Source of the DNA: an uncultured bacterium
GTDB lineage: Bacteria > Zixibacteria > MSB-5A5 > CAIYYT01
Assembly: GCA_963726455.1 (NCBI GenBank)
Contig: CAVSCK010000004.1
Span: forward strand, 448,001-512,000
Direction: 5' to 3'
DNA length: 64,000 nt
Part shown: piece after piece, positions 37,925 through 52,395 of the stretch
Position numbering within the stretch: the stretch's first letter is position 1
How the letters are laid out: every line of letters begins with the position of its first letter
Program-made: the position numbers and the translations under genes
The notes under the pieces: generated by a model
Told to the model about the DNA's origin: nothing
What the model saw: the letters and a program-made list of their open reading frames with translations, nothing else
The model's database searches: none

Positions 37925-38287
37925 CTGAGTAGTTTCGAAACATATTTCCCGATCTTCTTCCAGATCGTTCTGGCCATCATCATCGGGGCGTTCATGTTCG
38001 GCCTCTCGGCATCGCTCGGAAAGCGTTCGCGCAGCATTGTCAAAGATGAAGCTTACGAATGTGGCATCGAAGCTACCACCGATACCCGCCAACGTTTCTC
38101 GGTAAAATTCTATCTCGTTGCCATACTATTTATTGTCTTCGATCTCGAGACAATATTTCTCTTTCCGTGGGCGGTTAATTTCAAACAACTCGGACTATTC
38201 GGACTCGTGGAGATGGTCATCTTCATCCTGATCCTCCTTGTCGGTTACGTATATATCGTGAAGAAAGGAGCGATCAAATGGGATTAG
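37925..38287 (+). CDS. nuoA: NADH-quinone oxidoreductase subunit A (probable CTG start)
   Basis: [24 protein letters not shown]; first TM helix begins upstream of ATG 37994; GGAGGT precedes CTG 37925. Confidence 0.92.
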
Positions 38288-38769
38288 AAGAAAAAATCCC
38301 GGACGGGATAGTTTTGGCGACGGCAGAGAAGCTCGTCAATTGGGCGCGCAAACGGTCAACCTGGCCCTTCGGCTTCGGGCTGGCTTGTTGTGCGATCGAG
38401 ATGATGTCTTCCTTCGGGCCCAAGTATGACCTCTCGCGCTTCGGAATGGAAGTTATGCGCGCCTCGCCGCGTCAGGCCGATCTTATGATTGTCGCCGGCA
38501 GAGTATCGAACAAGATGGCGCCGGTACTCAAACGTCTTTACGATCAAATGCCCAATCCGAAATGGGTAATCGCCATGGGCGCCTGTGCGTCCTGTGGCGG
38601 GGTATTCAACAACTACGCGATTCTTCAGGGCGTTGATAAGATCGTGCCCGTGGATATATACGTGCCCGGTTGTCCGCCGCGGCCCGAACAACTGATTGAC
38701 GGTATCGTCAAACTGGAGAAGTTGATCGAACAGGAGAAGCTCAAAGGCGAATCGAAACAAAGCGCTTGA
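38278..38769 (+). CDS. nuoB: NADH-quinone oxidoreductase subunit B
   Basis: [28 protein letters not shown]. Confidence 0.97.
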
Positions 38770-38804
38770 GCATAGCAACAAAGGATCGTAGCTAAGTTTA
38801 CTTG

Positions 38805-39305
38805 ATGAATAACGTCACTCAAGAGCGGGTCAAGTCTCAATTCGGGGATCGAATACTGGAAACAGTAGTCGCCTACGACGAATTGACTTTCGTCGTGGAC
38901 AAGTCTGCTGTTGTCGAGCTGGCCCGTTTTCTCCGCGACGATAATTCCCTCAAGTACCTGCATCTCTCCGACATTACTGCGACTGACTGGCCCGCACGTC
39001 CGAAAAGATTCGAGGTCGTTTATCATCTGATGTCGTTCGATCTCAAGGATTATGTCCGCCTCAAAGTTCGCGTTGGCGAAGACGAACCCGTGCCAACTCT
39101 GACGGGCGAATGGGACACCGCGAACTGGCTCGAACGCGAAGTCTACGACATGTTCGGCATCAAATTCGCCGGTCATCCGGACATGCGCCGCATTCTCATG
39201 TGGGATGAATTCGAAGGCCATCCACTGCGCAAGGATTATCCGCTGACCTACGAGGTGCCACAGTTTACCTACAATAAGGATTTGCCGCCGGAGGTCATCA
39301 AGTAA
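38805..39305 (+). CDS. nuoC: NADH-quinone oxidoreductase subunit C
   Basis: ANWLEREVYDMFGI, GHPLRKDYPL. Confidence 0.96.
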   Translation: MNNVTQERVKSQFGDRILETVVAYDELTFVVDKSAVVELARFLRDDNSLKYLHLSDITATDWPARPKRFEVVYHLMSFDLKDYVRLKVRVGEDEPVPTLTGEWDTANWLEREVYDMFGIKFAGHPDMRRILMWDEFEGHPLRKDYPLTYEVPQFTYNKDLPPEVIK

Positions 39306-40474
39306 TGCGCACCGAGACGATGACCGTCAATCTCGGTCCGCAACATCCCGCGACTCACGGGGTGCTTCGTGTCGTGCTTGAACTCGATGGCGAAATCGTG
39401 GTGAAATGCACGCCGGAAATCGGCTACCTGCACACCGGTATCGAAAAGACCGCCGAAGCCAAGCTCTATTACAAAGTCATTCCTTTGACTGACCGCATGG
39501 ACTATCTCGCACCCATGTCGAATAATCTCGGCTATTGCCTGGCGGTGGAGAAGCTTTTCGGCGTTGAAGCCCCGCCCAAAGCGCAATGGGCGCGTGTACT
39601 CCTGACCGAAATCACCCGACTGAATTCACATATCGTCTGGCTGGGAACTCACGCGCTGGATATCGGCGCCATGAGTATGCTGCTTTACACCTTCCGCGAA
39701 CGCGAGGATTTGCTCTATATATATGAAGCTGTTTCCGGCCAGCGAATGATGTCCACGTATTTTCGTATCGGCGGCCTGGCTGCCGACCTGCCGGAGGATT
39801 TCGAAAAGCGTGTCCGCCGAGTCCTGGATACTTTCCCGGGGCGCTTCGAAGAATATGAGAACATTCTGACGAACAACCGCATTTGGCGCAACCGCACCAT
39901 CGGCGTCGGCGTGATCAGTAAGGAAGAGGCGCTTACGTCGGGGCTCACCGGTCCGCTGTTGCGCGCTGCCGGCGTCAAATACGATCTGCGTAAAGCCAGG
40001 CCGTATTCGAGCTACGAAAAATTCGATTTCGAGATTCCGACCCGCGAAGCTTCTGATTGTTTCGCACGGTACGAAGTTCGCCTCGAGGAAATGCGCCAAA
40101 GTTTGCGCATCATCAAGCAGGCGCTGGAAGGTATGCCGGAAGGACGTTATCGCGCCGATGCACCCGGTATCGTGAATCCGACCAAGGAAGAAGCGCTCTA
40201 TCAGATGGAAGCCATGATCTATCACTTCAAGCTGACGACCGAAGGTTTCCATCCTCCCAAAGGCGAAGTCTACGTGACCATCGAATCGCCCAAAGGTGAA
40301 CTCGGATACTACATCGTTTCCGATGGCGGCACGCGGCCATACCGCATGCGCGTGCGTCCGCCAAGCTTTGTGAATATCGCGGCGTTGTCGAAGCTGGTGG
40401 TTGGCAGACTGCTGGCGGACGTCATTGCCTGTATCGGATCGGTGGACATCGTACTGGGTGAGGTGGACAGATGA
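39305..40474 (+). CDS. nuoD: NADH-quinone oxidoreductase subunit D
   Basis: NLGPQHPATHGVLR, RMDY, ESPKGE, DIVLGEVDR. Confidence 0.97.
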   Translation: MRTETMTVNLGPQHPATHGVLRVVLELDGEIVVKCTPEIGYLHTGIEKTAEAKLYYKVIPLTDRMDYLAPMSNNLGYCLAVEKLFGVEAPPKAQWARVLLTEITRLNSHIVWLGTHALDIGAMSMLLYTFREREDLLYIYEAVSGQRMMSTYFRIGGLAADLPEDFEKRVRRVLDTFPGRFEEYENILTNNRIWRNRTIGVGVISKEEALTSGLTGPLLRAAGVKYDLRKARPYSSYEKFDFEIPTREASDCFARYEVRLEEMRQSLRIIKQALEGMPEGRYRADAPGIVNPTKEEALYQMEAMIYHFKLTTEGFHPPKGEVYVTIESPKGELGYYIVSDGGTRPYRMRVRPPSFVNIAALSKLVVGRLLADVIACIGSVDIVLGEVDR

Positions 40475-40947
40475 TCTTATCAGATGCGGCTAAGTTAAAA
40501 ATTTCACAAGCTGGCAAGAAATATCCAAAGATAAAGTCTGCTATTTTGCCGGCTCTGCATATTGCCTACGAAGAGCATGGTTATCTTAGCGACCAAATGT
40601 ACGAGGAGATCTCGCAAATACTTGGACTGAAATTTATCGAGGTTGCCGAGGCCGCCTCATTCTATACGATGTTTCCCAAGGCCAAACGCGGCAAGTACCT
40701 GTTGCAGGTCTGCCGCAATATTTCGTGCGCCTTATTGGGTTCGCATCATTTACGAGACTACCTGCTCGAAAAGCTGGGCGTGCGACTTGGAGAGACCACC
40801 GCCGACGGTCTGTTCACCGTGGTCGAGGTCGAATGCCTCGGCAGTTGTACGACCGCTCCGATGATGCAGGTCAACCAACATTACTATGAGAATCTCACGG
40901 TTGAGAAAGTCGACCGCCTGATTGAGGAATTCCGGGGCCGGAAATAG
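40471..40947 (+). CDS. nuoE: NADH-quinone oxidoreductase subunit E
   Basis: CRNISC and ECLGSC 2Fe-2S ligands. Confidence 0.96.
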   Translation: MILSDAAKLKISQAGKKYPKIKSAILPALHIAYEEHGYLSDQMYEEISQILGLKFIEVAEAASFYTMFPKAKRGKYLLQVCRNISCALLGSHHLRDYLLEKLGVRLGETTADGLFTVVEVECLGSCTTAPMMQVNQHYYENLTVEKVDRLIEEFRGRK

Positions 40948-40952
40948 ATCTG

Positions 40953-42243
40953 ATGGAAACGAAGATACTCACTGAGTTTGTCAGCGATCCGCAACAGCAC
41001 ACAATTGACCGTGCCATTGAGCATGGCGCCTATCAGGCATGGCAGAAAGTGCTCAAGGATATCAAGCCCGACGAACTTGATTCAAATGGTCAAGGACTCC
41101 GGCTTGCGCGGTCGCGGCGGCGCGGGATTCCCGACTGGAATGAAGTGGAGCTTCGTTCCCAAAAACTCGCCCAAACCGAAATACCTTTGCTGCAACGCCG
41201 ACGAATCCGAGCCCGGCACCTGCAAGGATCGTGTTTTGCTCGAAGGTGATCCGCACGCAGTTGTCGAGGGAATGGCAATTGCCTCGTATGCCATCGATTG
41301 TCATACGGCATTCTTCTATATCCGCGGCGAATATGACGTCAGCCAGGTTCGCATGTCCAAAGCAATCGAGGACGCCTACGCCAAAGGATATCTCGGCAAA
41401 AACATTTTTGGCACCGGCTATGATCTTGACATCGTCGTGCACCGTGGTGGCGGCGCATATATATGTGGCGAAGAAACCGCGCTGCTCAGTTCGCTTGAAG
41501 GCGACAAAGGGCTGGCGCGTTTGAAACCTCCGTTCCCGGCGGTCGAGGGCCTGTACAATTGCCCGACCATCATCAACAACGTCGAAACCCTTGCCAATTT
41601 GCCCCGCATTGTAATGAAGGGCGCGCAGTGGTTCGCCAGCCTGGGTACCGAAAAATCCAAAGGCACGAGAATCTTCTCGGTCTCCGGCCATGTAAAGAAG
41701 CCGGGTAACTACGAGTTGGAGCTTGGCTATTCATTGCGCGATCTCGTTTACGGCCTCGCCGGGGGCATCAAGGATGACAAGCAACTCAAGGCGATTATTC
41801 CCGGCGGCTCATCCACACCGATTCTTTTGCCCGACAAGCTCGACACCAAATTGGATTTCGAATCGGTCGCCGCAGCGGGTTCCATGCTCGGTTCCTGTGC
41901 CGTCATCGTGATGGACGAGGACACTTGCATCGTCTGGATCGCCGAAATTCTGGCGCACTTCTATATGCACGAATCCTGCGGCAAGTGCACTCCCTGCCGG
42001 CAGGGTACCGGCTGGATGTATGAAATCATCCGCCGCATTGAAGCAGGCAAGGGCAAAATGGAAGACCTGGACACGCTGATGGATATCGCTAAGAATATCG
42101 AAGGGAACACGATTTGCCCGCTGGGCGACGCAGCCGCAGTCCCGGTCATTTCTGCGCTAAGTCTATTCCGGGATGAATTTGTTTATCACATCGAGAACGG
42201 CAGATGCAAGGCGCCGACTCGATTTCGCATGAGAGAGAAATGA
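40953..42243 (+). CDS. nuoF: NADH-quinone oxidoreductase subunit F (+1 frameshift near 41077, probable sequence error)
   Basis: GLRGRGGAGFPTG, NADESEPGT, YICGEETAL, SCGKCTPCR; N-terminus lies in the adjacent frame. Confidence 0.93.
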
Positions 42244-44840
42244 GCGATTTCAATATAACAGTCAACGGCCAGCAGGTTCCGGTTGTCAAAGGCCAGACGG
42301 TGCTTCAGGCATCTTTGGCTGCGGGCATCGATATTCCGGTGTTCTGCTGGCACCCGCAACTTGTTCCTGTAGGCGCCTGTCGTATCTGCCTCGTGGAAAT
42401 TGAGAAGTTCCCCAAGCTGCAGGTTGCTTGTGCTACTGTTGCCACGGACGGCATGATTGTTCACACGGAATCGCCCAAGACCATCAAAGCCCGCCAGAGT
42501 GTCCTTGAGTTCATTCTCGCTCATCATCCGCTCGATTGCCCAACCTGCGACAAGGGCGGCGAATGCGATCTGCAAAACATCACGTTCAAGTACGGCCTCG
42601 ATTACAGCCGGCAGCTCGAGCCGAAACACCGCTTTATCGTCGATCCAACATCAACCTTCGACGACTGGCGCATTGGTCCCGAGGTGATTCGCAATCAGAA
42701 TCGCTGCATCCATTGTTTTCGTTGCACGCGCATCGTAAATGAAATCGCCTTTGAGGATGACCTCGGCGCCTATCAGCGCGGATATCACACCGAAATTCTG
42801 CCGCCGCCCGGACGCGAAATTCACAATCTGTATTCTGGAAACGTCGTTGAATACTGTCCTGTCGGCGCTCTGACTAATACCGATTGGCGTTACAAAGTGC
42901 GCGTCTGGCTCACCAAGCAGGCAAACACGATTTGTCCGCACTGCCCGGACGGCTGCAACATGAAGCTCTGGACGTTCCACAACAAGTTGTTCCGGGCAAC
43001 CTCTAATGCCAACGAAGACATTGACTGCGGCTTCCTATGCGATATCGGTCGCTATGGTTATCAGTATGTTCAGAGTCCTGACCGCATCAAGCGGCCCATG
43101 GTCCGACGCAAGGGTGAACTGGTCGAGACCTCATGGGATGAAGCGCTTGGCTTGATCAAACGCCAGACTGATGACATTAAATCCAAGTTGTCAGGTAGTG
43201 GCTTCTTCGGCTTTATCGGCGACATCAGGACTGACGAAGAGGTCTATTCCTTCCAGCGATTCCTGCGCCGCGTTATCGGCTCGAACAACATCGATCACCG
43301 CTTCCATCGCCGCCGTCGGCTTTCGCCTGGTGAGGAAGTCGCCATGCGCGGTATTGGCTCGGATGACCTTGAATTCAAAGATATCGAAAACGCCGATGTC
43401 ATCGTGATTTTCGGATCCGACTTGCACTCCGAGGACCCGATTACTTCGCTGCGTGTCAAGCGGGCTGTCTTCCGTCACAATGCCAAAGTGGTTTTGCTCA
43501 ACCCGTTGCCGACGCCACTGAACAAACGCACGGCCACGCTGGAAGTAATCTATAAACCGGGCACCGGCGCCGTGCTTCTGCATGGCATTATTGACACGAT
43601 TATGAATCTGCCACAGTTCGATCCGGCAGCGGTCGGTCTTGATGCCAACGAACTGGCGGAATTTCGTAAAGCTAATGCTTCATATACGGCGGCTCAGACG
43701 GCGAATATCTGCAGCGTCGAACTTGAAACCTTGTCTCAGGCCGCCCAGTTCATTTTTGGCGCACGGAATCTCGTCATTATTGGCGGAAGCTACGTCGAAC
43801 GCGACGCCTTCCGCGACTCGCTGCATTTGGCAGTTGCGAATCTGCAACGGTTCTGCAAATCAGCGAAGAAACTATTTCTGCCGCCAGACAGCAATACGAT
43901 GGGCGCGTCCTTCTTCGGCGCCGAGCCAGGATTCCTCCCGGGCAAGCAGCCCTGGTCGAAAAAATCCTTCTACGAAGATCTCTGGCACGGCCCGATACCC
44001 GAAATGGCGGGGAAGGACACAATCGGCATTCTTGAAGCTATCGACGAAGATGAAATCGAATGCGGCTTCGTGTTCAATGCCGATCCGGTGCGCTTGTTCC
44101 CGGACGGCAATTATGTCCGGTCGGTTATGGAGAAGCTGAAGTTGCTCGTGGTGGTGGACAGCTTCATGACTGAGACCGCGCGTCTTGCCGATGTCATTCT
44201 GCCGATGTCGACTTTCGCCGAGACTGAGGGTACGCGCGTCAATTGGGAATATCGTCTGCAATACTCACAACGGGCAATTCCTCCGTTGTATGAATCAAAA
44301 CCCGGCTGCGAAATCGTTGAGCTGTTGGCAGACAAACTTGGTGTTAAGTTCAGCCAACCGGGGCCGTCCGATGTCTTCAAAGAAATGGCGCGCTGTCTGC
44401 CCGCAAACGCGCCGACAACATTCGCTGCTTTCGGCAAGGCCGGATACCTGATTCGTTCTGCCGATGCGAAGAAACCCGCGAAACTTGCCGAGATCAAATT
44501 CACGCCGCCGGCCATCGATACCGAATATCGGTTTGCGTTATTGATCGGTAATGCTGATCATCACCGCGGCATGTTGACGGAGCGTAATGAATCCCTGCTA
44601 AAATTCACCGGTGAGCCGTTCGTCGGCATCAGTGAAGCCGACGCCACTGAACTTGCGGTATCTGACGGTGACCTCGTCAAAGTCGAATCCAAGAACGGCA
44701 AGGTCATCGGTAAGGCACAGATTCTTTCCGGTTTCCCGAAACGGCGCGTGTTGTTGCCGGAGAACTTCAGCGAAATGACCACGAATTCCTTGATGAGTCG
44801 CCAGGACAAGATCGATTTCGTCAAGTTGGTGAAGATGTAG
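42240..44840 (+). CDS. nuoG: NADH-quinone oxidoreductase subunit G
   Basis: GACRICLVE, HPLDCPTCDKGGECDLQ, RCIHCFRC, CPVGAL, CPHCPDGC. Confidence 0.96.
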   Translation: MSDFNITVNGQQVPVVKGQTVLQASLAAGIDIPVFCWHPQLVPVGACRICLVEIEKFPKLQVACATVATDGMIVHTESPKTIKARQSVLEFILAHHPLDCPTCDKGGECDLQNITFKYGLDYSRQLEPKHRFIVDPTSTFDDWRIGPEVIRNQNRCIHCFRCTRIVNEIAFEDDLGAYQRGYHTEILPPPGREIHNLYSGNVVEYCPVGALTNTDWRYKVRVWLTKQANTICPHCPDGCNMKLWTFHNKLFRATSNANEDIDCGFLCDIGRYGYQYVQSPDRIKRPMVRRKGELVETSWDEALGLIKRQTDDIKSKLSGSGFFGFIGDIRTDEEVYSFQRFLRRVIGSNNIDHRFHRRRRLSPGEEVAMRGIGSDDLEFKDIENADVIVIFGSDLHSEDPITSLRVKRAVFRHNAKVVLLNPLPTPLNKRTATLEVIYKPGTGAVLLHGIIDTIMNLPQFDPAAVGLDANELAEFRKANASYTAAQTANICSVELETLSQAAQFIFGARNLVIIGGSYVERDAFRDSLHLAVANLQRFCKSAKKLFLPPDSNTMGASFFGAEPGFLPGKQPWSKKSFYEDLWHGPIPEMAGKDTIGILEAIDEDEIECGFVFNADPVRLFPDGNYVRSVMEKLKLLVVVDSFMTETARLADVILPMSTFAETEGTRVNWEYRLQYSQRAIPPLYESKPGCEIVELLADKLGVKFSQPGPSDVFKEMARCLPANAPTTFAAFGKAGYLIRSADAKKPAKLAEIKFTPPAIDTEYRFALLIGNADHHRGMLTERNESLLKFTGEPFVGISEADATELAVSDGDLVKVESKNGKVIGKAQILSGFPKRRVLLPENFSEMTTNSLMSRQDKIDFVKLVKM

Positions 44841-44841
44841 G

Positions 44842-45825
44842 ATGCTGCTATTCATCCTTATCACGGTTATCAAGTCCCTGGTCATTCTGACCGTGCTGCT
44901 CTTGACCTGTGCCTGGATGACTTATGCCGAACGCAAATTTGTCGCGTTCATGCAATCGCGCATCGGGCCGAATGTCGCCGGTTGGTATGGATTGCTCCAG
45001 CCGGTAGCCGATTTGGTCAAGCTCTTGCTTAAGGAAGAAGTGCTTCCCGGTGGCGCCAACCGGACTCTGTATTTGTTGGCTCCGCTTATGGTGTTTATCC
45101 CGGCGATGTTGCCGATCGCGATGATACCAATCGGTAAGGATATAACGCTTTTCGGTCACACGATCCCGCTGGTAATATCTAATTTCAATCTTGGCCTGTT
45201 GTTCGTATTCGCCATCACTTCGCTCGGAGTCTACGGGATTGTAATGGCCGGCTGGTCGGCCAACAGCAAGTATTCTTTGCTGGGTGGTCTGAGATCCTCC
45301 GCGCAGATGGTTTCCTACGAGATCGGGCTCGGCATGTCCGTAATCGGTCTGCTCGTGCTGGCGGGAACCTTGAATCTTGTCGAAATTGTAAACCAGCAAA
45401 GCGTCTGGTACAAATGGTATATCTTCCGTCAGCCGCTTGGCTTCCTGCTCTATTTTATCTGCGCGATCGCGGAGACCAATCGTTCGCCGTTTGACCTGCC
45501 GGAAGCGGAATCCGAATTAGTTGCCGGTTACTTTACCGAATATTCGTCCATGCGTTTCGGCCTGTTCTTCGTCGGCGAGTATGCCAACATGGTTACCGTC
45601 GCCGCGGTCGCTACGACATTATTCCTCGGCGGCTGGCAGGGTCCATTCTTGCCGCCGGTGTTGTGGTTTATTATCAAGGCCGCCGCGTTGCTCTTTTGCT
45701 ACATCTGGATTCGCGCCAGTTTGCCGCGATTCCGTTACGACCAGTTGATGAAATTCGGCTGGTATGTCGTCATCCCGCTGGCACTCGCCAATATTCTGGT
45801 GACGGCACTGATAGCGTTGCTCTAG
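44842..45825 (+). CDS. nuoH: NADH-quinone oxidoreductase subunit H
   Basis: ERKFVAFMQSRIGPN, AETNRSPFDLPEAESEL, PRFRYDQLM. Confidence 0.97.
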   Translation: MLLFILITVIKSLVILTVLLLTCAWMTYAERKFVAFMQSRIGPNVAGWYGLLQPVADLVKLLLKEEVLPGGANRTLYLLAPLMVFIPAMLPIAMIPIGKDITLFGHTIPLVISNFNLGLLFVFAITSLGVYGIVMAGWSANSKYSLLGGLRSSAQMVSYEIGLGMSVIGLLVLAGTLNLVEIVNQQSVWYKWYIFRQPLGFLLYFICAIAETNRSPFDLPEAESELVAGYFTEYSSMRFGLFFVGEYANMVTVAAVATTLFLGGWQGPFLPPVLWFIIKAAALLFCYIWIRASLPRFRYDQLMKFGWYVVIPLALANILVTALIALL

Positions 45826-45835
45826 GAGGTTAGAG

Positions 45836-46345
45836 TTGTTCAGGATACTCAAACAGATCGTCATCGCCATCCCGATCGGGATGTACACCGTGCTGAAACA
45901 GATGTTTCGCAAGCCGGTGACGATTCAATATCCGTTCGAGAAAGAGCCGATGATGCCGCGCTATCGCGGACTGCACTTTCTCGAACGCTACGAGGACGGC
46001 TCCGAGCGCTGCGTCTGCTGTGGCCTCTGTGCGGCTTCGTGCCCGGCGGATGCGATATATATGGAGCCGGGCGAGACCGAGAGGGGAGAGCGCTACGCGA
46101 AAGTCTATGAGATCAACGAACTCCGCTGCATCTTCTGCGGCTTCTGCGAAGAGGCCTGTCCGGAGGAAGCGATCTTCCTCGGCAAGGAATATGAATTTGC
46201 CGACTCGCGGCGTGACAAATTCATCTATACGAAAGAGGATTTGCTGGTGAAGTGGCCGCGCGAAAAGCCGTCTGAGGTCAAATTCATCCGCAAGGACCGG
46301 CGCGTCAATTGGGATGACGTGCCGGAAATCAAGGAGCAGGAATAA
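45836..46345 (+). CDS. nuoI: NADH-quinone oxidoreductase subunit I
   Basis: TIQYP, CVCCGLCAASCP, CIFCGFCEEACP. Confidence 0.97.
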   Translation: MFRILKQIVIAIPIGMYTVLKQMFRKPVTIQYPFEKEPMMPRYRGLHFLERYEDGSERCVCCGLCAASCPADAIYMEPGETERGERYAKVYEINELRCIFCGFCEEACPEEAIFLGKEYEFADSRRDKFIYTKEDLLVKWPREKPSEVKFIRKDRRVNWDDVPEIKEQE

Positions 46346-46349
46346 GCTC

Positions 46350-46850
46350 ATGGGTCTGGCAATCTTTTTCATCACTGCCGCCGTCGCAATCGTCGCCGCG
46401 GTCTTGGTGATTGTGCAACGCAACCCGATTTCCTCAGTGATGTATCTGGTAGTGACCTTCGTGGCTCAGGCCGTCCTGTTCATTCAACTTCAGGCCGCCT
46501 TCATCGCCATGCTCCAGGTTATCGTATACGCCGGAGCGATTATGGTGCTATTCCTGTTTGTGATCATGTTGCTCAATTTGCGCCGCGAGGAATTCGGCAA
46601 AGATGTCAAACTGAAATTCAAACCCGTGGCGATTGCTTTCGCCGTGGTGTTGTTGATAGAAACGATAGTCGTGATCAACGCTTCACTGATGCCCGCGCAG
46701 CCCGCCGCCGAATTGTCGGCAACCTTCGGTTCCGTTCAGGAAGTCGGCAAAGAGTTGTTCACGACCTATCTATATCCTTTTGAACTGACCTCAGTGTTGC
46801 TGATCGTCGCGATTCTCGGCGCTGTGGTCATGGCGAAGAAGAAGCTGTAG
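46350..46850 (+). CDS. nuoJ: NADH-quinone oxidoreductase subunit J
   Basis: QVIVYAGAIMVLFLFVIMLL, PFELTSVLL. Confidence 0.96.
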   Translation: MGLAIFFITAAVAIVAAVLVIVQRNPISSVMYLVVTFVAQAVLFIQLQAAFIAMLQVIVYAGAIMVLFLFVIMLLNLRREEFGKDVKLKFKPVAIAFAVVLLIETIVVINASLMPAQPAAELSATFGSVQEVGKELFTTYLYPFELTSVLLIVAILGAVVMAKKKL

Positions 46851-46853
46851 ACT

Positions 46854-47156
46854 ATGGTTCCGCTGGAATATTATCTGATTGTCGCCGGAATGATCTTCAC
46901 GATCGGTATGATCGGCGTGATCATTGCCCGCAACATCATAATCATTTTCATGTCGGTCGAGTTGATGCTCAACGCCGCCAATCTGGCGATGATCGCCTTC
47001 TCGCGTAATCTCGGCTCGATGGGCGGACACGTTATGGTCTTTATGATTATGACGGTCGCTGCGGCGGAAGCTGCGGTCGGCCTGTCGATTATTATCGCGC
47101 TGTTTCGCAATCGCGACAGCGCCAACATTGATGAAGTCAACCTGTTGAAGTGGTAG
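46854..47156 (+). CDS. nuoK: NADH-quinone oxidoreductase subunit K
   Basis: MSVELMLNA, VAAAEAAVGL. Confidence 0.97.
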   Translation: MVPLEYYLIVAGMIFTIGMIGVIIARNIIIIFMSVELMLNAANLAMIAFSRNLGSMGGHVMVFMIMTVAAAEAAVGLSIIIALFRNRDSANIDEVNLLKW

Positions 47157-47169
47157 CGCCGAAGGTACG

Positions 47170-49102
47170 ATGGAATTGATCTGGCTCATACCGCTTGTCC
47201 CGCTCGCCGGCTTCATACTCAACGGCCTGTTCGGCAAGAATTTCAGCAAGCCGGTCATCAATACTATTGCCTGCGGCTCCGTAGCGGTTTCGTTCCTGCT
47301 TTCCCTGAATGCTTTCTTCGGCCTCCTGCGTCTTGATCCCGAGGCCCGAAGTTTCGAATACATTTTGTTCTCGTGGATTCCTTCGGGCAACTTCAGTGCC
47401 GACATTGGATTTTTGCTCGATCCGCTATCGGCCGTCATGATTCTTGTCGTCACCGGCGTCGGTCTGTTGATCCACATCTATTCCATCGGCTACATGGCCC
47501 ACGACGAGGGCTATCCGCGCTTCTTCACTTACATGAATTTGTTCATGGCCTCGATGTTGACGCTTGTCCTTGCCAACAACTTCGTGCTCATGTACGTCGG
47601 CTGGGAAGGCGTCGGCCTCTGCTCATACTTGCTGATTGGTTTCTGGTACGAAAAGAAGTCCGCTACCGATGCCGGCAAAAAAGCGTTCATCGTCAACCGC
47701 ATCGGCGATTTCGGATTTGCTCTCGGAATAATGCTATTGTTCTGGACGCTCGGTTCGGTGCATTTTTCGACCGTTTTCAATTTGGCTCCCCAACAACTTG
47801 CTTACGGTGGGGGAGTGGTCACGGCGGCGACGCTGCTGTTATTCCTCGGCGCTACCGGTAAGTCTGCTCAGGTGCCGTTGTACGTCTGGCTTCCTGACGC
47901 TATGGAGGGCCCGACCCCGGTCTCCGCATTGATTCACGCCGCGACGATGGTCACTGCCGGTGTCTACATGGTCGCGCGCTGTAATGTGCTGTACGTGATG
48001 GCTCCGACGACGTTACTTGTGGTCGCCATTGTCGGCATCTTCACCGCCTTCTACGCCGCGACAATCGGTCTCTTCCAGAACGACATTAAGCGTGTGCTTG
48101 CCTATTCCACCATCAGTCAGCTTGGTTATATGTTCGCTGCCTGCGGTGTCGCCGCTTTCGGCGCGGGTATCTTCCATCTTATGACGCATGCTTTCTTCAA
48201 AGCTTTGTTGTTCCTGGGCGCCGGTTCGGTGATTCACGCCATGAGTGGCGAGCAGGACATGCGTCGCATGGGTGGTCTCAAAGGCAAACTGCCCGCGACC
48301 TACACGACCATGATAATTGCGACGCTGGCAATTGCCGGCATCCCGTTGTTCTCCGGCTTCTTCTCAAAAGACGAAATTCTCTGGCAGGCGTTTTCCTCGC
48401 CGTTCGGCTCTCCGATTCTCTGGGTTGTCGGCCTGATCACCGCCGGTCTGACTGCGTTCTACATGTTCCGCCTGATTTACATGACTTTCTTCGGTGAGCG
48501 CCGCTACGACGACCACACGGCCGCGCATCTGCACGAATCACCTCGCGTTATGACCGTGCCGTTGATGATTCTCGGCGTTCCTGTCGCTGGTCGGCGGCTA
48601 CGTCGGCCTTCCCAAGGCACTCCTTGGCGGCGCTTGGTTCGAGCATTTCTTGCATCCGGTATTTGCCAGGGGCGCCGAAATCGGCAAGCTCGCGGAAGCG
48701 GCAGGGGAGTCGCATGCGACTGAATACATCCTCATGATTGTCGCTGTCGCATTGGTGGTCGTCATGATTCTGACTGCCAAGCGTTTCTATCTTGATCGCG
48801 CCAAACAGTCAGAGCAATTTGAGCAGGGCTTCGGCGGGCTCTATAAGCTGATTTATCACAAGTATTACATAGATGAACTGTACGACAAGGCCATCGTCAA
48901 TCCCATGGTCAAAGGATCAAATTTCCTCTGGCAGAAATTCGATGTCCTGATTATCGACGGCGCGGTGAACGGCGCCGCCTGGCTGATCGGCCAATGGGCG
49001 ATGGGCTTCCGCAAACTGCAAACCGGCATGGTGCGCAGTTACGCCTTCGTCTTTCTCGGCGGCGCGATCTTTGTGATCGGCTATTTGATTTTGAGCAGGT
49101 AG
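47170..49102 (+). CDS. nuoL: NADH-quinone oxidoreductase subunit L (+1 frameshift near 48578, probable error)
   Basis: [34 protein letters not shown]; C-terminus ([12 protein letters not shown]) lies in the next frame. Confidence 0.93.
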
Positions 49103-49104
49103 CA

Positions 49105-50662
49105 ATGAACGAACAGATATTGACCATCGTAACTTTCCTTCCCACAGTGGGCGCGATCATATTGCTCCTGCTGCGCGAACAGATGAAGCAGGCGATCAAA
49201 GTGACCGCGCTGGCAACATCGGTGGTCACGTTCCTGTTCTCCACCTATCTTTATTTCAATTTCCAACCCGGCACTGCCGCCATGCAATTCGTCGTTCACA
49301 AACCCTGGATTCCGGCGCTCGGTGTCACCTATCACCTGGGCATTGACGGCATCAGTCTGTTTCTCGTTCTCTTGACCACTCTGCTCACTGCGATCTCGAT
49401 ACTATCCGCCTGGACGGCCGTGGCCGACCGCGTCAAGGGATTCATGGTCTCGCTACTGATCCTGGAAACCGGCATGCTCGGCGTCTTTGTGTCGCTCGAT
49501 CTGTTCCTGTTCTATGTCTTCTGGGAAGTCATGCTGGTTCCGATGTACTTCCTCATCGGCATCTGGGGCGGCATCAACCGCATCTATGCAGCCATCAAAT
49601 TTGTCTTGTTCACGATGTTCGGCTCGCTCCTGATGTTGGTCGCCATCGTGGCGCTATACATTATTCGTTATAAGGCAACCGGAGTTTGGTCGTTCGACCT
49701 CTTATCATATTATGATTTGCGAATCCCACTCGGCGCTCAGAATTGGCTTTTCATCGCCTTTGCGCTGGCGTTCCTGATCAAAGTCCCGATGTTCCCGTTC
49801 CATACCTGGTTACCGGATGCCCACGTACAAGCGCCGACCGCCGGCTCCGTGATTCTGGCTGGGGTGCTGCTGAAAATGGGCACCTATGGTTTCCTGCGTT
49901 ATTGCATACCGATGTTCCCAAATGCCTTTGACGCCTTCATGCCGCTGTTGGCGGTGCTGGCACTGATCGGCATCATTTACGGTGCGCTCGTGGCGATGGT
50001 GCAGAAGGATGTCAAATCGTTGGTCGCATTTTCATCCGTCGCCCACATGGGATTTGTCATGATCGGAATGTTCGCCCTCAACATGCAGGGTGTGCAGGGT
50101 TCAATTCTGCAAATGCTCAATCATGGCATCTCGACCGGAGCCCTGTTCCTGGTCGTCGGCATGATCTACGAACGACGGCACACGCGCTTGATCGATGATT
50201 TCGGAGGCATCTTCAAGGTCATGCCTGTCTTTACGACATTCTTCATGATCATAACTTTGTCATCAATCGGTTTGCCCGGCACCAACGGTTTCGTCGGCGA
50301 GTTCCTGATTCTGCTCGGCACTTTCGGCATGAACAAGGTCTACGCCGTGATCGCCACCTCCGGCATCATCCTGGCCGCTGTCTACATGCTCTGGATGTTC
50401 CAGCGTGTGATGTTCGGCAAGTGCGAAAAACCGGAGAATCTCAAGCTGACCGATATCAATCTCCGCGAAAAACTCGTACTGATCCCGCTTGATCGTCCTG
50501 ATCTTCTGGATCGGACTCTACCCGAAACCATTCCTCGACGCGATGGCGCCTTCGGTGCAGAATCTGATCGAGCAGACCAATGGGAAACGTATGCACCTTT
50601 CGCAGAGTTTCACGCCTGACAGAGAATGGGTTATTGCCACTGCGACGGCGGTGGAGGAGTAA
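49105..50662 (+). CDS. nuoM: NADH-quinone oxidoreductase subunit M (+1 frameshift near 50490, probable error)
   Basis: [30 protein letters not shown]; last helix IFWIGLYP lies in the next frame. Confidence 0.93.
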
Positions 50663-50667
50663 ACGAC

Positions 50668-50892
50668 ATGGCCAATGTAAAGATCTACACCAAGGTTGGC
50701 TGTCCTTACTGCGCCAAAGCTAAAGAGGATTTCAAAAAGCGTGGCGTCGACTTTGAAGAAATCGACGTCCATAATGTTCCCGGTGCCGCCGAGGAGGCGG
50801 CGAAATACGCCAAAGGCCAGAAAGTCGTGCCGGTGATTGTCGAGAATGGCAAGGTCACCCTCGGCTACGGCGGCGGGTCATGAGGATTCTAA
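50668..50892 (+). CDS. UXX-star family glutaredoxin-like selenoprotein (TGA 50881-50883 = Sec)
   Basis: GCPYC, VPVIVENG, C-terminus GYGGGS-TGA-GGA-TTC-TAA (U-G-F-stop); GGAG SD; downstream hairpin. Confidence 0.85.
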
Positions 50893-50917
50893 CCGACGGC
50901 AGTTTGTCGTCTTAGGA
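50887..50917 (+). promoter_or_regulatory. Putative bacterial SECIS element
   Basis: TTCTAA-cc-GACGGCA-GTT-TGTCGTC-TTAGGA; 11 nt separate the UGA from the upper stem; G in the apical loop. Confidence 0.7.
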
Positions 50918-50939
50918 TGAAACATTAAAGAGATACTTG

Positions 50940-52395
50940 ATGAATATTCCGAACGTTGATTTCGCCCTGTTGTCGCCCTCGTTGATAGTCTGTATCACCG
51001 GGTTGCTGACGATGGTCATGGTGCCGTTCCTGAGTGAACGGCGGCAGGTTATCGTCGCGCATGTCAGTTGGCTGGGTTTGGCTATCGCTCTGGTCGCCGT
51101 GTCACAACAGATCGGCAAGAACGCCACGACCTTCGACGGCATGTTCCTCGGCGATGACTTCAGCCAGTTCTTCAACGGCATCTTTATTGTCGCCTCGATG
51201 CTGACGATTTTCACGTCGATCGATTACCTTCGCCGCAAGGAGAACGAGCACGGGGAATACTATCCGCTTATTCTCTTCGCCACCTACGGCATGATGGTCA
51301 TGGCATCGACTGCGAATTTGCTCGTGATCTTCCTTGGCCTCGAAATTATGTCGGTGGCACTGTACGTTCTCGCCGGTTTTGCGCGCACCGAATTGAAATC
51401 AACTGAGGCCGCTGTCAAGTATTTCTTGCTGGGCGCCTTTGCGACCGGATTCACCGTTTTCGGTATTGCCTTCATCTACGGCGCGACCGGTACTTTCGAC
51501 ATCGCGCGCATCGCAGGTGTTGCCTTCGGTTCGTCCAGTGTCGATACCTTCTTGACTGATCGGTGGCGCCTTGTTGGCGATTGGGTTTGGCTTCAAAGTC
51601 TCCGCCGTGCCGTTCCACATGTGGACTCCGGACGCCTACGAAGGTGCTCCCTCACCGATAACCGGCTTTATGTCCGCCGGTCCCAAGGCCGCCGCCTTTG
51701 CCGCCATGTTACGCATCTTCATCGTCGGATATGCCGGCGTCGGCGCTCATATTCAGACGTTGTTCTGGATTCTGTCGGTCGCCACCATGACGGTTGGCAA
51801 CATCATGGCGCTTCGGCAAAGCAACATCAAACGCATGCTCGCTTTTTCGTCAATCGCGCATGCCGGCTACATTCTCATCGCCCTGGCAGTCAGTAGCAGC
51901 GAATCTTCGTCTGCCGCTGCATTATACTTGTTGGCGTACGCGCTGACTAATCTCGGCGCCTTTATGGTCATTGCTCTGGTAGATTCCGCCTCGCAGCACG
52001 ATGAGTTCACGACAATTGATTCTTTCACCGGCCTCGCACGTAAACGTCCTTATTTGGGACTGGCGCTCACGCTGTTTCTGTTGTCGCTGGCCGGATTCCC
52101 GCCGACTGCGGGTTTTATGGGTAAGTTCGTGCTCTTCAAAGCCGCTGTTGATCAGGGCTATTACATGCTGGTTGTCATCGCCGTGATGAACAGCTTGGTA
52201 TCGGTGTTCTACTACTTGCGCGTTGTCGTGAAGATGTTCATGAGCGATGCGGAAGAGCAGGCCGTTGAGGTACCCGCCGTTCCCGCGTTCCTTATGGTGG
52301 CACTGGTATTTGCTGTGGCGGCTGTATTCCTGATCGGTGTCTATCCGCAGGCCTGGTTCAATTTCGCCGGGCTGTCAATCCTCGGCGGCAACTGA
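50940..52395 (+). CDS. nuoN: NADH-quinone oxidoreductase subunit N (+1 frameshift near 51555, probable error)
   Basis: [51 protein letters not shown]. Confidence 0.93.

Follow-up and report, generated by a model that had tools for sequence, protein, structure and literature searches.

In small redoxins, a CP(Y/H/F)C motif combined with Val-Pro is the typical signature of a dithiol oxidoreductase, and the classical NrdH and glutaredoxin proteins continue past their last strand into a helix. Selenocysteine (Sec) close to a C-terminus is found in mammalian thioredoxin reductase, which ends in a Gly-Cys-Sec-Gly arm. The Uxx-star families were reportedly defined by gene neighbourhood, in work by Haft and Tolstoy in 2025. 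An excerpt of a 2026 review (PMC13188914) describes the function of the Uxx-star family as uncharacterised and its role as unresolved, and lists for UXX-star family 1 (NF041114) two Sec and a motif other than that of the redoxin reported here. With respect to complex I, Grx2 acts on thiols of the mitochondrial enzyme, according to part of PMC2529008. Below we compare these systems with a locus in a 64,000-nucleotide stretch of DNA (the window) from an uncultured member of the Zixibacteria; coordinates without a contig name are positions in the window.

A Uxx-star redoxin gene inside the nuoA-N operon

The redoxin gene lies between nuoM and nuoN, with the following features.

37925..52395, + strand: nuoA-N complex I operon of 14 genes including nuoEFG, into which the redoxin gene is inserted; single frame breaks near 41075 (nuoF), 48577 (nuoL), 50490 (nuoM) and 51555 (nuoN)
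49105..50662, + strand: nuoM; compared with two same-genus genomes it carries a surplus base near 50490, and after correction of the frame its stop is the TAA at 50660-50662
50653..50659, + strand: Shine-Dalgarno-like GGAGGAG inside the last nuoM codons, recognised by sequence
50668..50892, + strand: Uxx-star glutaredoxin-like gene, very probably for a selenoprotein of 74 aa with Sec72 (family profile, synteny, hairpin, Cys homologs)
50701..50712, + strand: CPYC motif; its two cysteines, Cys12 and Cys15, are unchanged in all 23 Zixibacteria copies aligned
50881..50883, + strand: in-frame TGA, very likely Sec72 (TGA in 100 of 100 copies, Cys in 8 homologs)
50886..50918, + strand: hairpin of the bacterial SECIS type, in which 50895-50901 pairs with 50905-50911 as the upper stem around a GUU loop at 50902-50904, overlapping the true stop TAA at 50890-50892
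50940..52395, + strand: nuoN, with its frame break near 51555

An earlier note, made from the sequence alone, had described a CPYC glutaredoxin ending S-U-G-F-stop, had assigned it to the UXX-star proteins, and had placed its start 5 bp beyond the stop that nuoM has once its frame is corrected, in an otherwise canonical nuoA-N operon. This reading holds in all its parts. From the ATG at 50668 the frame reaches the TGA after GGGS, followed by Gly, Phe and TAA; the 5-bp distance results once the nuoM base that is extra relative to the two same-genus genomes is corrected, and the operon is complete from nuoA to nuoN, though with single breaks in four of its genes. In profile searches the redoxin scored 107.6 bits on NF041212 (cut-off 66) over model positions 1-70 of 70, and still 103.8 bits when cut at the TGA. 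A match to PF00462 (59.2 bits), the structure model and fold searches all identified a glutaredoxin-like fold with an N-terminal Cys motif. The Uxx-star pattern of Sec or Cys, two residues and a stop is present as U-G-F-stop, and it recurs in 100 of 100 copies. The redoxin thus resembles the NF041212 family in its full-length match, in combining a CxxC motif with Sec as the third-last residue, and in its size of about 70 aa, and it is a new member of this catalogued family. Unlike the family as a whole, no named sub-family fits well: NF041114 gave 76.4 bits with Cys for Sec and 71.7 for the truncated protein (cut-off 72), while NF041211 (UXX-star family 2; 77.8 versus 100) and NF047338 (family 3; 68.8 versus 97) stayed below their cut-offs. 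A further family model, NF045501, describes a fusion. The Shine-Dalgarno-like GGAGGAG at the end of nuoM suggests that translation of the redoxin gene may be coupled to that of nuoM.

Since frame breaks also hit one selD copy and one nuoF-like gene elsewhere in the genome, those in the operon are most likely long-read assembly errors. A further single break lies at about 34250 in an upstream gene, and the nuoM and nuoN breaks adjoin GATC. The genome also holds a second complex I-like cluster (C3:455800-465200), with matches to nuoB-D and nuoH-N, no nuoEFG, and nothing inserted between nuoM and nuoN. Contigs C1, C4 and C5 carry nuoEF(G)-like modules apart from it, and genes resembling those of antiporters, NuoD and NuoB form another cluster at C4:1722300-1729400.

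The in-frame TGA is very probably read as selenocysteine

The lower stem of the hairpin pairs 50886-50892 with 50912-50918, and is followed by a 2-nt bulge and a 7-bp upper stem. This upper stem begins at 50895, 11 nt past the TGA, just as the earlier note had stated when it proposed a bacterial SECIS geometry, and the geometry itself was also borne out. The bSECIS criteria given in an excerpt of PMC13188914 are a loop of 3-9 nt with a G in its first two positions, a stem of 4-16 bp, a spacing of 16-37 nt and a minimum free energy of at most -7.5; the hairpin has a 3-nt loop starting with GU, 7 bp, a spacing of 18 nt and -12.8 kcal/mol. Taken as a single sequence, the hairpin stands out only modestly (z -2.2 to -2.7). 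A comparison covered 100 distinct nuo-linked copies, which are kin, so that all counts from them overstate independence. A test for a stem with a G-loop at SECIS distance was passed by 90 of these copies. Shuffling, repeated 200 times, gave a mean of 2.1 and never more than 7, and among 480 other TGA stops of this genome 14 passed. The stem positions switch among pair types across the copies. All 100 have TGA as their first stop. The second, three codons on, is TAA in 62, TGA in 22 and TAG in 16, and the two codons in between encode GF (69), GI (16), GY (10), DF (4) or HI (1), with free third positions.

The Sec machinery, which the earlier note had proposed to look for, is encoded in the genome: selA, selB and selD score over cut-off and the tRNA-Sec (selC) reaches 70.9 bits. 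The genes for tRNA-Sec, selA and selB are clustered on contig C3, and selD lies elsewhere. There are two selD matches, one split across two frames (C3:645393-646257) and one with an in-frame TGA (C4:1791814-1792734), which on account of that TGA is likely to be a selenoprotein itself. Homologs with Cys at the U position, also proposed as a check, do exist: one among the 120 closest database proteins and seven among 148 cluster representatives. All eight pass NF041212, with the Cys aligning at residue 72. Cys12 is invariant in them while seven of the eight have lost the second CxxC cysteine, which points to a pair formed by Cys12 and the tail residue.

Taken together, these sequence patterns lead us to infer that the TGA is very probably read through, directed by SelB via the hairpin, and that translation would end at the TAA two codons later. 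The opposite reading is that the TGA is a true stop, giving a 71-residue redoxin with the hairpin as an mRNA stability element. Databases do end the protein at the TGA, but this reading has to contend with a TGA that is constant while the next stop varies, with two conserved codons between the stops and a G-loop hairpin at SECIS spacing, as well as with the Cys homologs at U72, the lack of a U-tract terminator at the hairpin and the better-ordered model obtained with the tail (see below); we regard it as very improbable indeed. The redoxin would accordingly be a selenoprotein whose database entries are cut short in most of the phylum; the top database matches end at the TGA.

Predicted structure and chemistry of the tail

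We compared two AlphaFold runs based on the same 23 sequences. With the tail included (Cys for Sec), pLDDT was 91.9 and strand was assigned at residues 53-54 and 72-73; for the protein cut at the TGA, pLDDT was 87.7 and the strand at 53-54 was gone. Because this strand vanishes without the tail, it follows by elimination that residues 72-73 probably pair with Val53-Val54 beside the conserved Pro55, which would place Sec72 near Cys12. The site beside Pro55 is where a classical glutaredoxin holds the cysteine of glutathione.

The top fold neighbours were BC3987/NrdH-type redoxins (Z 10.3-10.8, rmsd 1.5-1.9, 65-67 aligned residues), nearly tied with classical glutaredoxins, and none of the fold matches extends past residue 69-70 of the redoxin. 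The redoxin shares CPYC, Val-Pro and its core fold (Z 9.4-10.8, 65-69 residues) with the NrdH-redoxins, including BC3987 of Bacillus cereus, and with the dithiol glutaredoxins E. coli Grx3, cGrx1 and cGrx2. Unlike these proteins, which continue after the last strand, the redoxin model has a short Sec tail at that point. The arm of mammalian thioredoxin reductase is alike in that its Sec also lies close to the C-terminus, on a mobile tail rich in Gly. It differs in its fold, in its vicinal Cys, and in that the predicted partner of Sec72 in the redoxin is Cys12 of the same domain.

In the mechanism that we propose, the Gly-Ser-Sec-Gly-Phe tail would fold into the redoxin's own glutathione groove. 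The first step would be attack by Cys12 on a disulfide or mixed disulfide of the substrate. Sec72 would then resolve the intermediate as glutathione does, and Cys15 together with a cellular reductant would recycle the redoxin. The Cys-tail homologs that keep Cys12 but mostly lack Cys15, the fold matches that stop short of the tail, and the thiol genes of the host (see below) agree with such a mechanism. The protein is likely a self-contained Cys12/Sec72 redoxin.

Low-molecular-weight thiols of the host

A classical glutathione-dependent glutaredoxin would call for a host that makes glutathione. The redoxin's own genome, which is 100% complete, contains no match to the glutathione synthesis models TIGR01380 (gshB), PF04107 (GCS2) and PF04262 (Glu-Cys ligase). 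It does encode bshA, bshB1 and bshC over cut-off, and the bacillithiol genes bshC-bshA-bshB1 run directly into selC-selA-selB (C3:128061-134924, minus strand). For the bacillithiol disulfide reductase YpdA, the best match (168 bits) lies below the cut-off of 340. In 19 hand-paired genomes, bshC lies within 5.2 kb of selA in 11 and 10-70 kb away in the other eight. Throughout the phylum, bshC was found in 203 of 239 genomes. We considered whether it tracks the redoxin and discarded this idea, with families f8, f9 and f18 having bshC and no redoxin, and family f11 having the redoxin with bshC in 0 of 4 genomes.

A conserved but accessory operon variant in Zixibacteria

Matches to the redoxin (E 1e-12 or better) occur in 163 of 239 Zixibacteria genomes and in 11 of the 19 families of the phylum, with none in the other eight families. 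In agreement with the synteny that the earlier note had suggested checking, the gene comes after nuoM in every one of the 63 carriers inspected. In 61 of them nuoN is next, and in the other two the contig ends there. These carriers span 10 families, among which the N-terminal halves of NuoN are only about 40% identical.

An obligate complex I subunit or assembly factor would be present wherever the operon is intact, whereas in 32 genomes the orthologous nuoM is joined straight to nuoN with nothing between. We inspected 30 genomes without a match, of which 26 have nuoM and nuoN joined, one has a frame-broken copy in place, two are cut by contig ends and one shows only the paralog. In a separate set of 11 genomes, six join nuoM and nuoN, one is a carrier, and four are contig-cut or show only the paralog. 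Neither of two simple causes accounts for the losses. Loss of the Sec machinery does not fit, as nearly all gene-less genomes keep it (selB in 28 of 30 searched, selA in 6 of 6 of another gene-less set). Loss of nuoEFG does not fit either: nuoB-L with nuoEFG lies upstream in 20 of 20 carriers and in 16 of 20 inspected gene-less genomes. This retention of the same operon also disfavours an essential form of the assembly role that the earlier note had raised. The remaining four gene-less genomes (families f9 and f19) show only nuoJKL upstream within the 14 kb fetched, with nuoJKLMN apart from nuoA-I.

We mapped presence and absence onto a NuoM tree, made by a quick method from 83 rows with none dropped (46 carriers, 32 non-carriers, 5 paralogs), and without relying on its rooting. 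This gave 9-10 changes, with at least five gains or losses forced by well-supported branches, and some changes concern single genera within carrier families. The redoxin is accessory and dispensable to the operon. Its position between nuoM and nuoN in most Zixibacteria, with several lineages lacking it, is a conserved but accessory operon variant.

Seventeen nuo-linked loci bear Ignavibacteria or Deferrimicrobium titles, and transfer to these groups was considered and rejected. Eight of them are DNA-identical to genomes of the window's own class, and the rest are 70-87% identical. All were treated as mis-titled, and for this reason we make no cross-phylum claim.

Homologs in other phyla

Among the best 80 genome matches, 60 are nuo-linked and 20 come from other phyla. 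None of these 20 has a nuo operon around it, and 18 of them also end TGA-X-X-stop. At 15 non-Zixibacteria loci that were scanned, a heavy-metal P1B ATPase occurs near five (directly upstream in four, nearby in one), and other neighbours include aldehyde dehydrogenases, an AhpC/TSA protein and PAS kinases. In four loci titled Thermoleophilia or Actinomycetota, the Uxx-star gene is directly downstream of the P1B ATPase on the same strand.

In Chloroflexota, the Uxx-star domain is fused C-terminally to C-GCAxxG-C-C proteins. Dozens of proteins of 200-202 aa, several of them from Chloroflexota/Dehalococcoidia, combine the PF09719 C-GCAxxG-C-C domain with a C-terminal Uxx-star domain ending FGGG, and are probably truncated selenoproteins. 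Fusions of EamA to the Uxx-star domain also occur (two proteins).

Complex I as a possible client

The Uxx-star family has no assigned function, and the locus offers two hypotheses for it, namely a Sec tail that stands in for glutathione within the molecule, and complex I as the client. The best explanation as a whole, which we put forward tentatively, is that of a Sec72 redoxin with its tail in the glutathione groove, serving as an accessory thiol repair enzyme made together with complex I. The redoxin would be translated along with complex I, and its preferred clients would be exposed thiols of the NADH-oxidising arm. This choice of client is possible on an argument purely from gene order, because the position is invariant, the gene appears coupled to the nuoM stop and is restricted to the operon with the NADH module, and Grx2 provides a precedent. 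As a working analogy, the Grx2 system outlined in part of PMC2529008 also has a glutaredoxin-fold enzyme handling complex I thiols; unlike the redoxin, Grx2 is glutathione-dependent, is no selenoprotein and is not co-encoded with its target, and no equivalent target cysteine was picked out here. In NuoA-L, no cysteine separated carriers from non-carriers; the best contrasts, both confounded by kinship, were NuoF C82 (15/20 versus 5/16) and NuoH C23 (15/20 versus 6/15). No convincing in-frame TGA was found in NuoA-L either.

The main competitor keeps the same selenoprotein and chemistry, but sees in it a redoxin of general use in the cytoplasm, which profits by hitch-hiking from a nuo transcript that is strong and tied to respiration; complex I would not be its client. 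We consider this account nearly as likely. Repeated clean losses that leave the operon unchanged are what it would lead one to expect, as are the absence of a co-varying Cys in NuoA-L, the unrelated neighbours in other phyla and the C-GCAxxG-C-C fusion in Chloroflexota; moreover, a small gene in an essential operon is presumably easier to delete than to move. It fits less well with the fact that relocation was seen in 0 of 63 inspected carriers across 10 families, with the tight coupling to the nuoM stop, and with the absence of a redoxin gene from this genome's paralogous nuo cluster. If hitch-hiking is all there is, the locus still yields a correction of the annotation on good support, and an operon variant that is conserved.

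Another idea is that Cys12, Cys15 and Sec72, instead of cycling disulfides, together coordinate either a metal (Cu, Hg) or an Fe-S cluster, and thereby protect the complex I clusters or help to load them. The P1B ATPases near five of the 15 non-Zixibacteria loci are in line with it, and so is the suggestion, in an excerpt of PMC13188914, that the Sec of the Uxx-star family may be a metal ligand. Yet Cys15 is missing in seven of the eight Cys-tail homologs, no metal-handling gene lies beside the redoxin in the nuo context, and the CP(Y/H/F)C and Val-Pro elements are typical of dithiol oxidoreductases, so that metal binding seems improbable to us. Returning to thiol repair of complex I, its most specific form is a selenoenzyme devoted to this task, whose Sec tail serves as a built-in glutathione and which repairs or de-bacillithiolates thiols of the NADH arm in most Zixibacteria. 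This form is, on balance, unlikely; if true, it would be a bacterial, glutathione-free counterpart of the mitochondrial Grx2 control and would give the Uxx-star family its first client. A redoxin fixed inside nuoA-N was not found in the literature searched, which excluded the paper defining Uxx-star families by neighbourhood, and we provisionally regard the nuo context as undescribed.

In-frame fusions of NuoM to the redoxin occur in one genome (G202) and in two database proteins; within them, the start codon of the redoxin and its ribosome-binding site are preserved. The C-terminus of NuoM should face the periplasm. We did not accept these fusions as Rosetta-stone evidence and judged them to be incidental stop losses; the sister genome of G202 has a stop at this point, and both genomes retain the ribosome-binding site and ATG of the redoxin.
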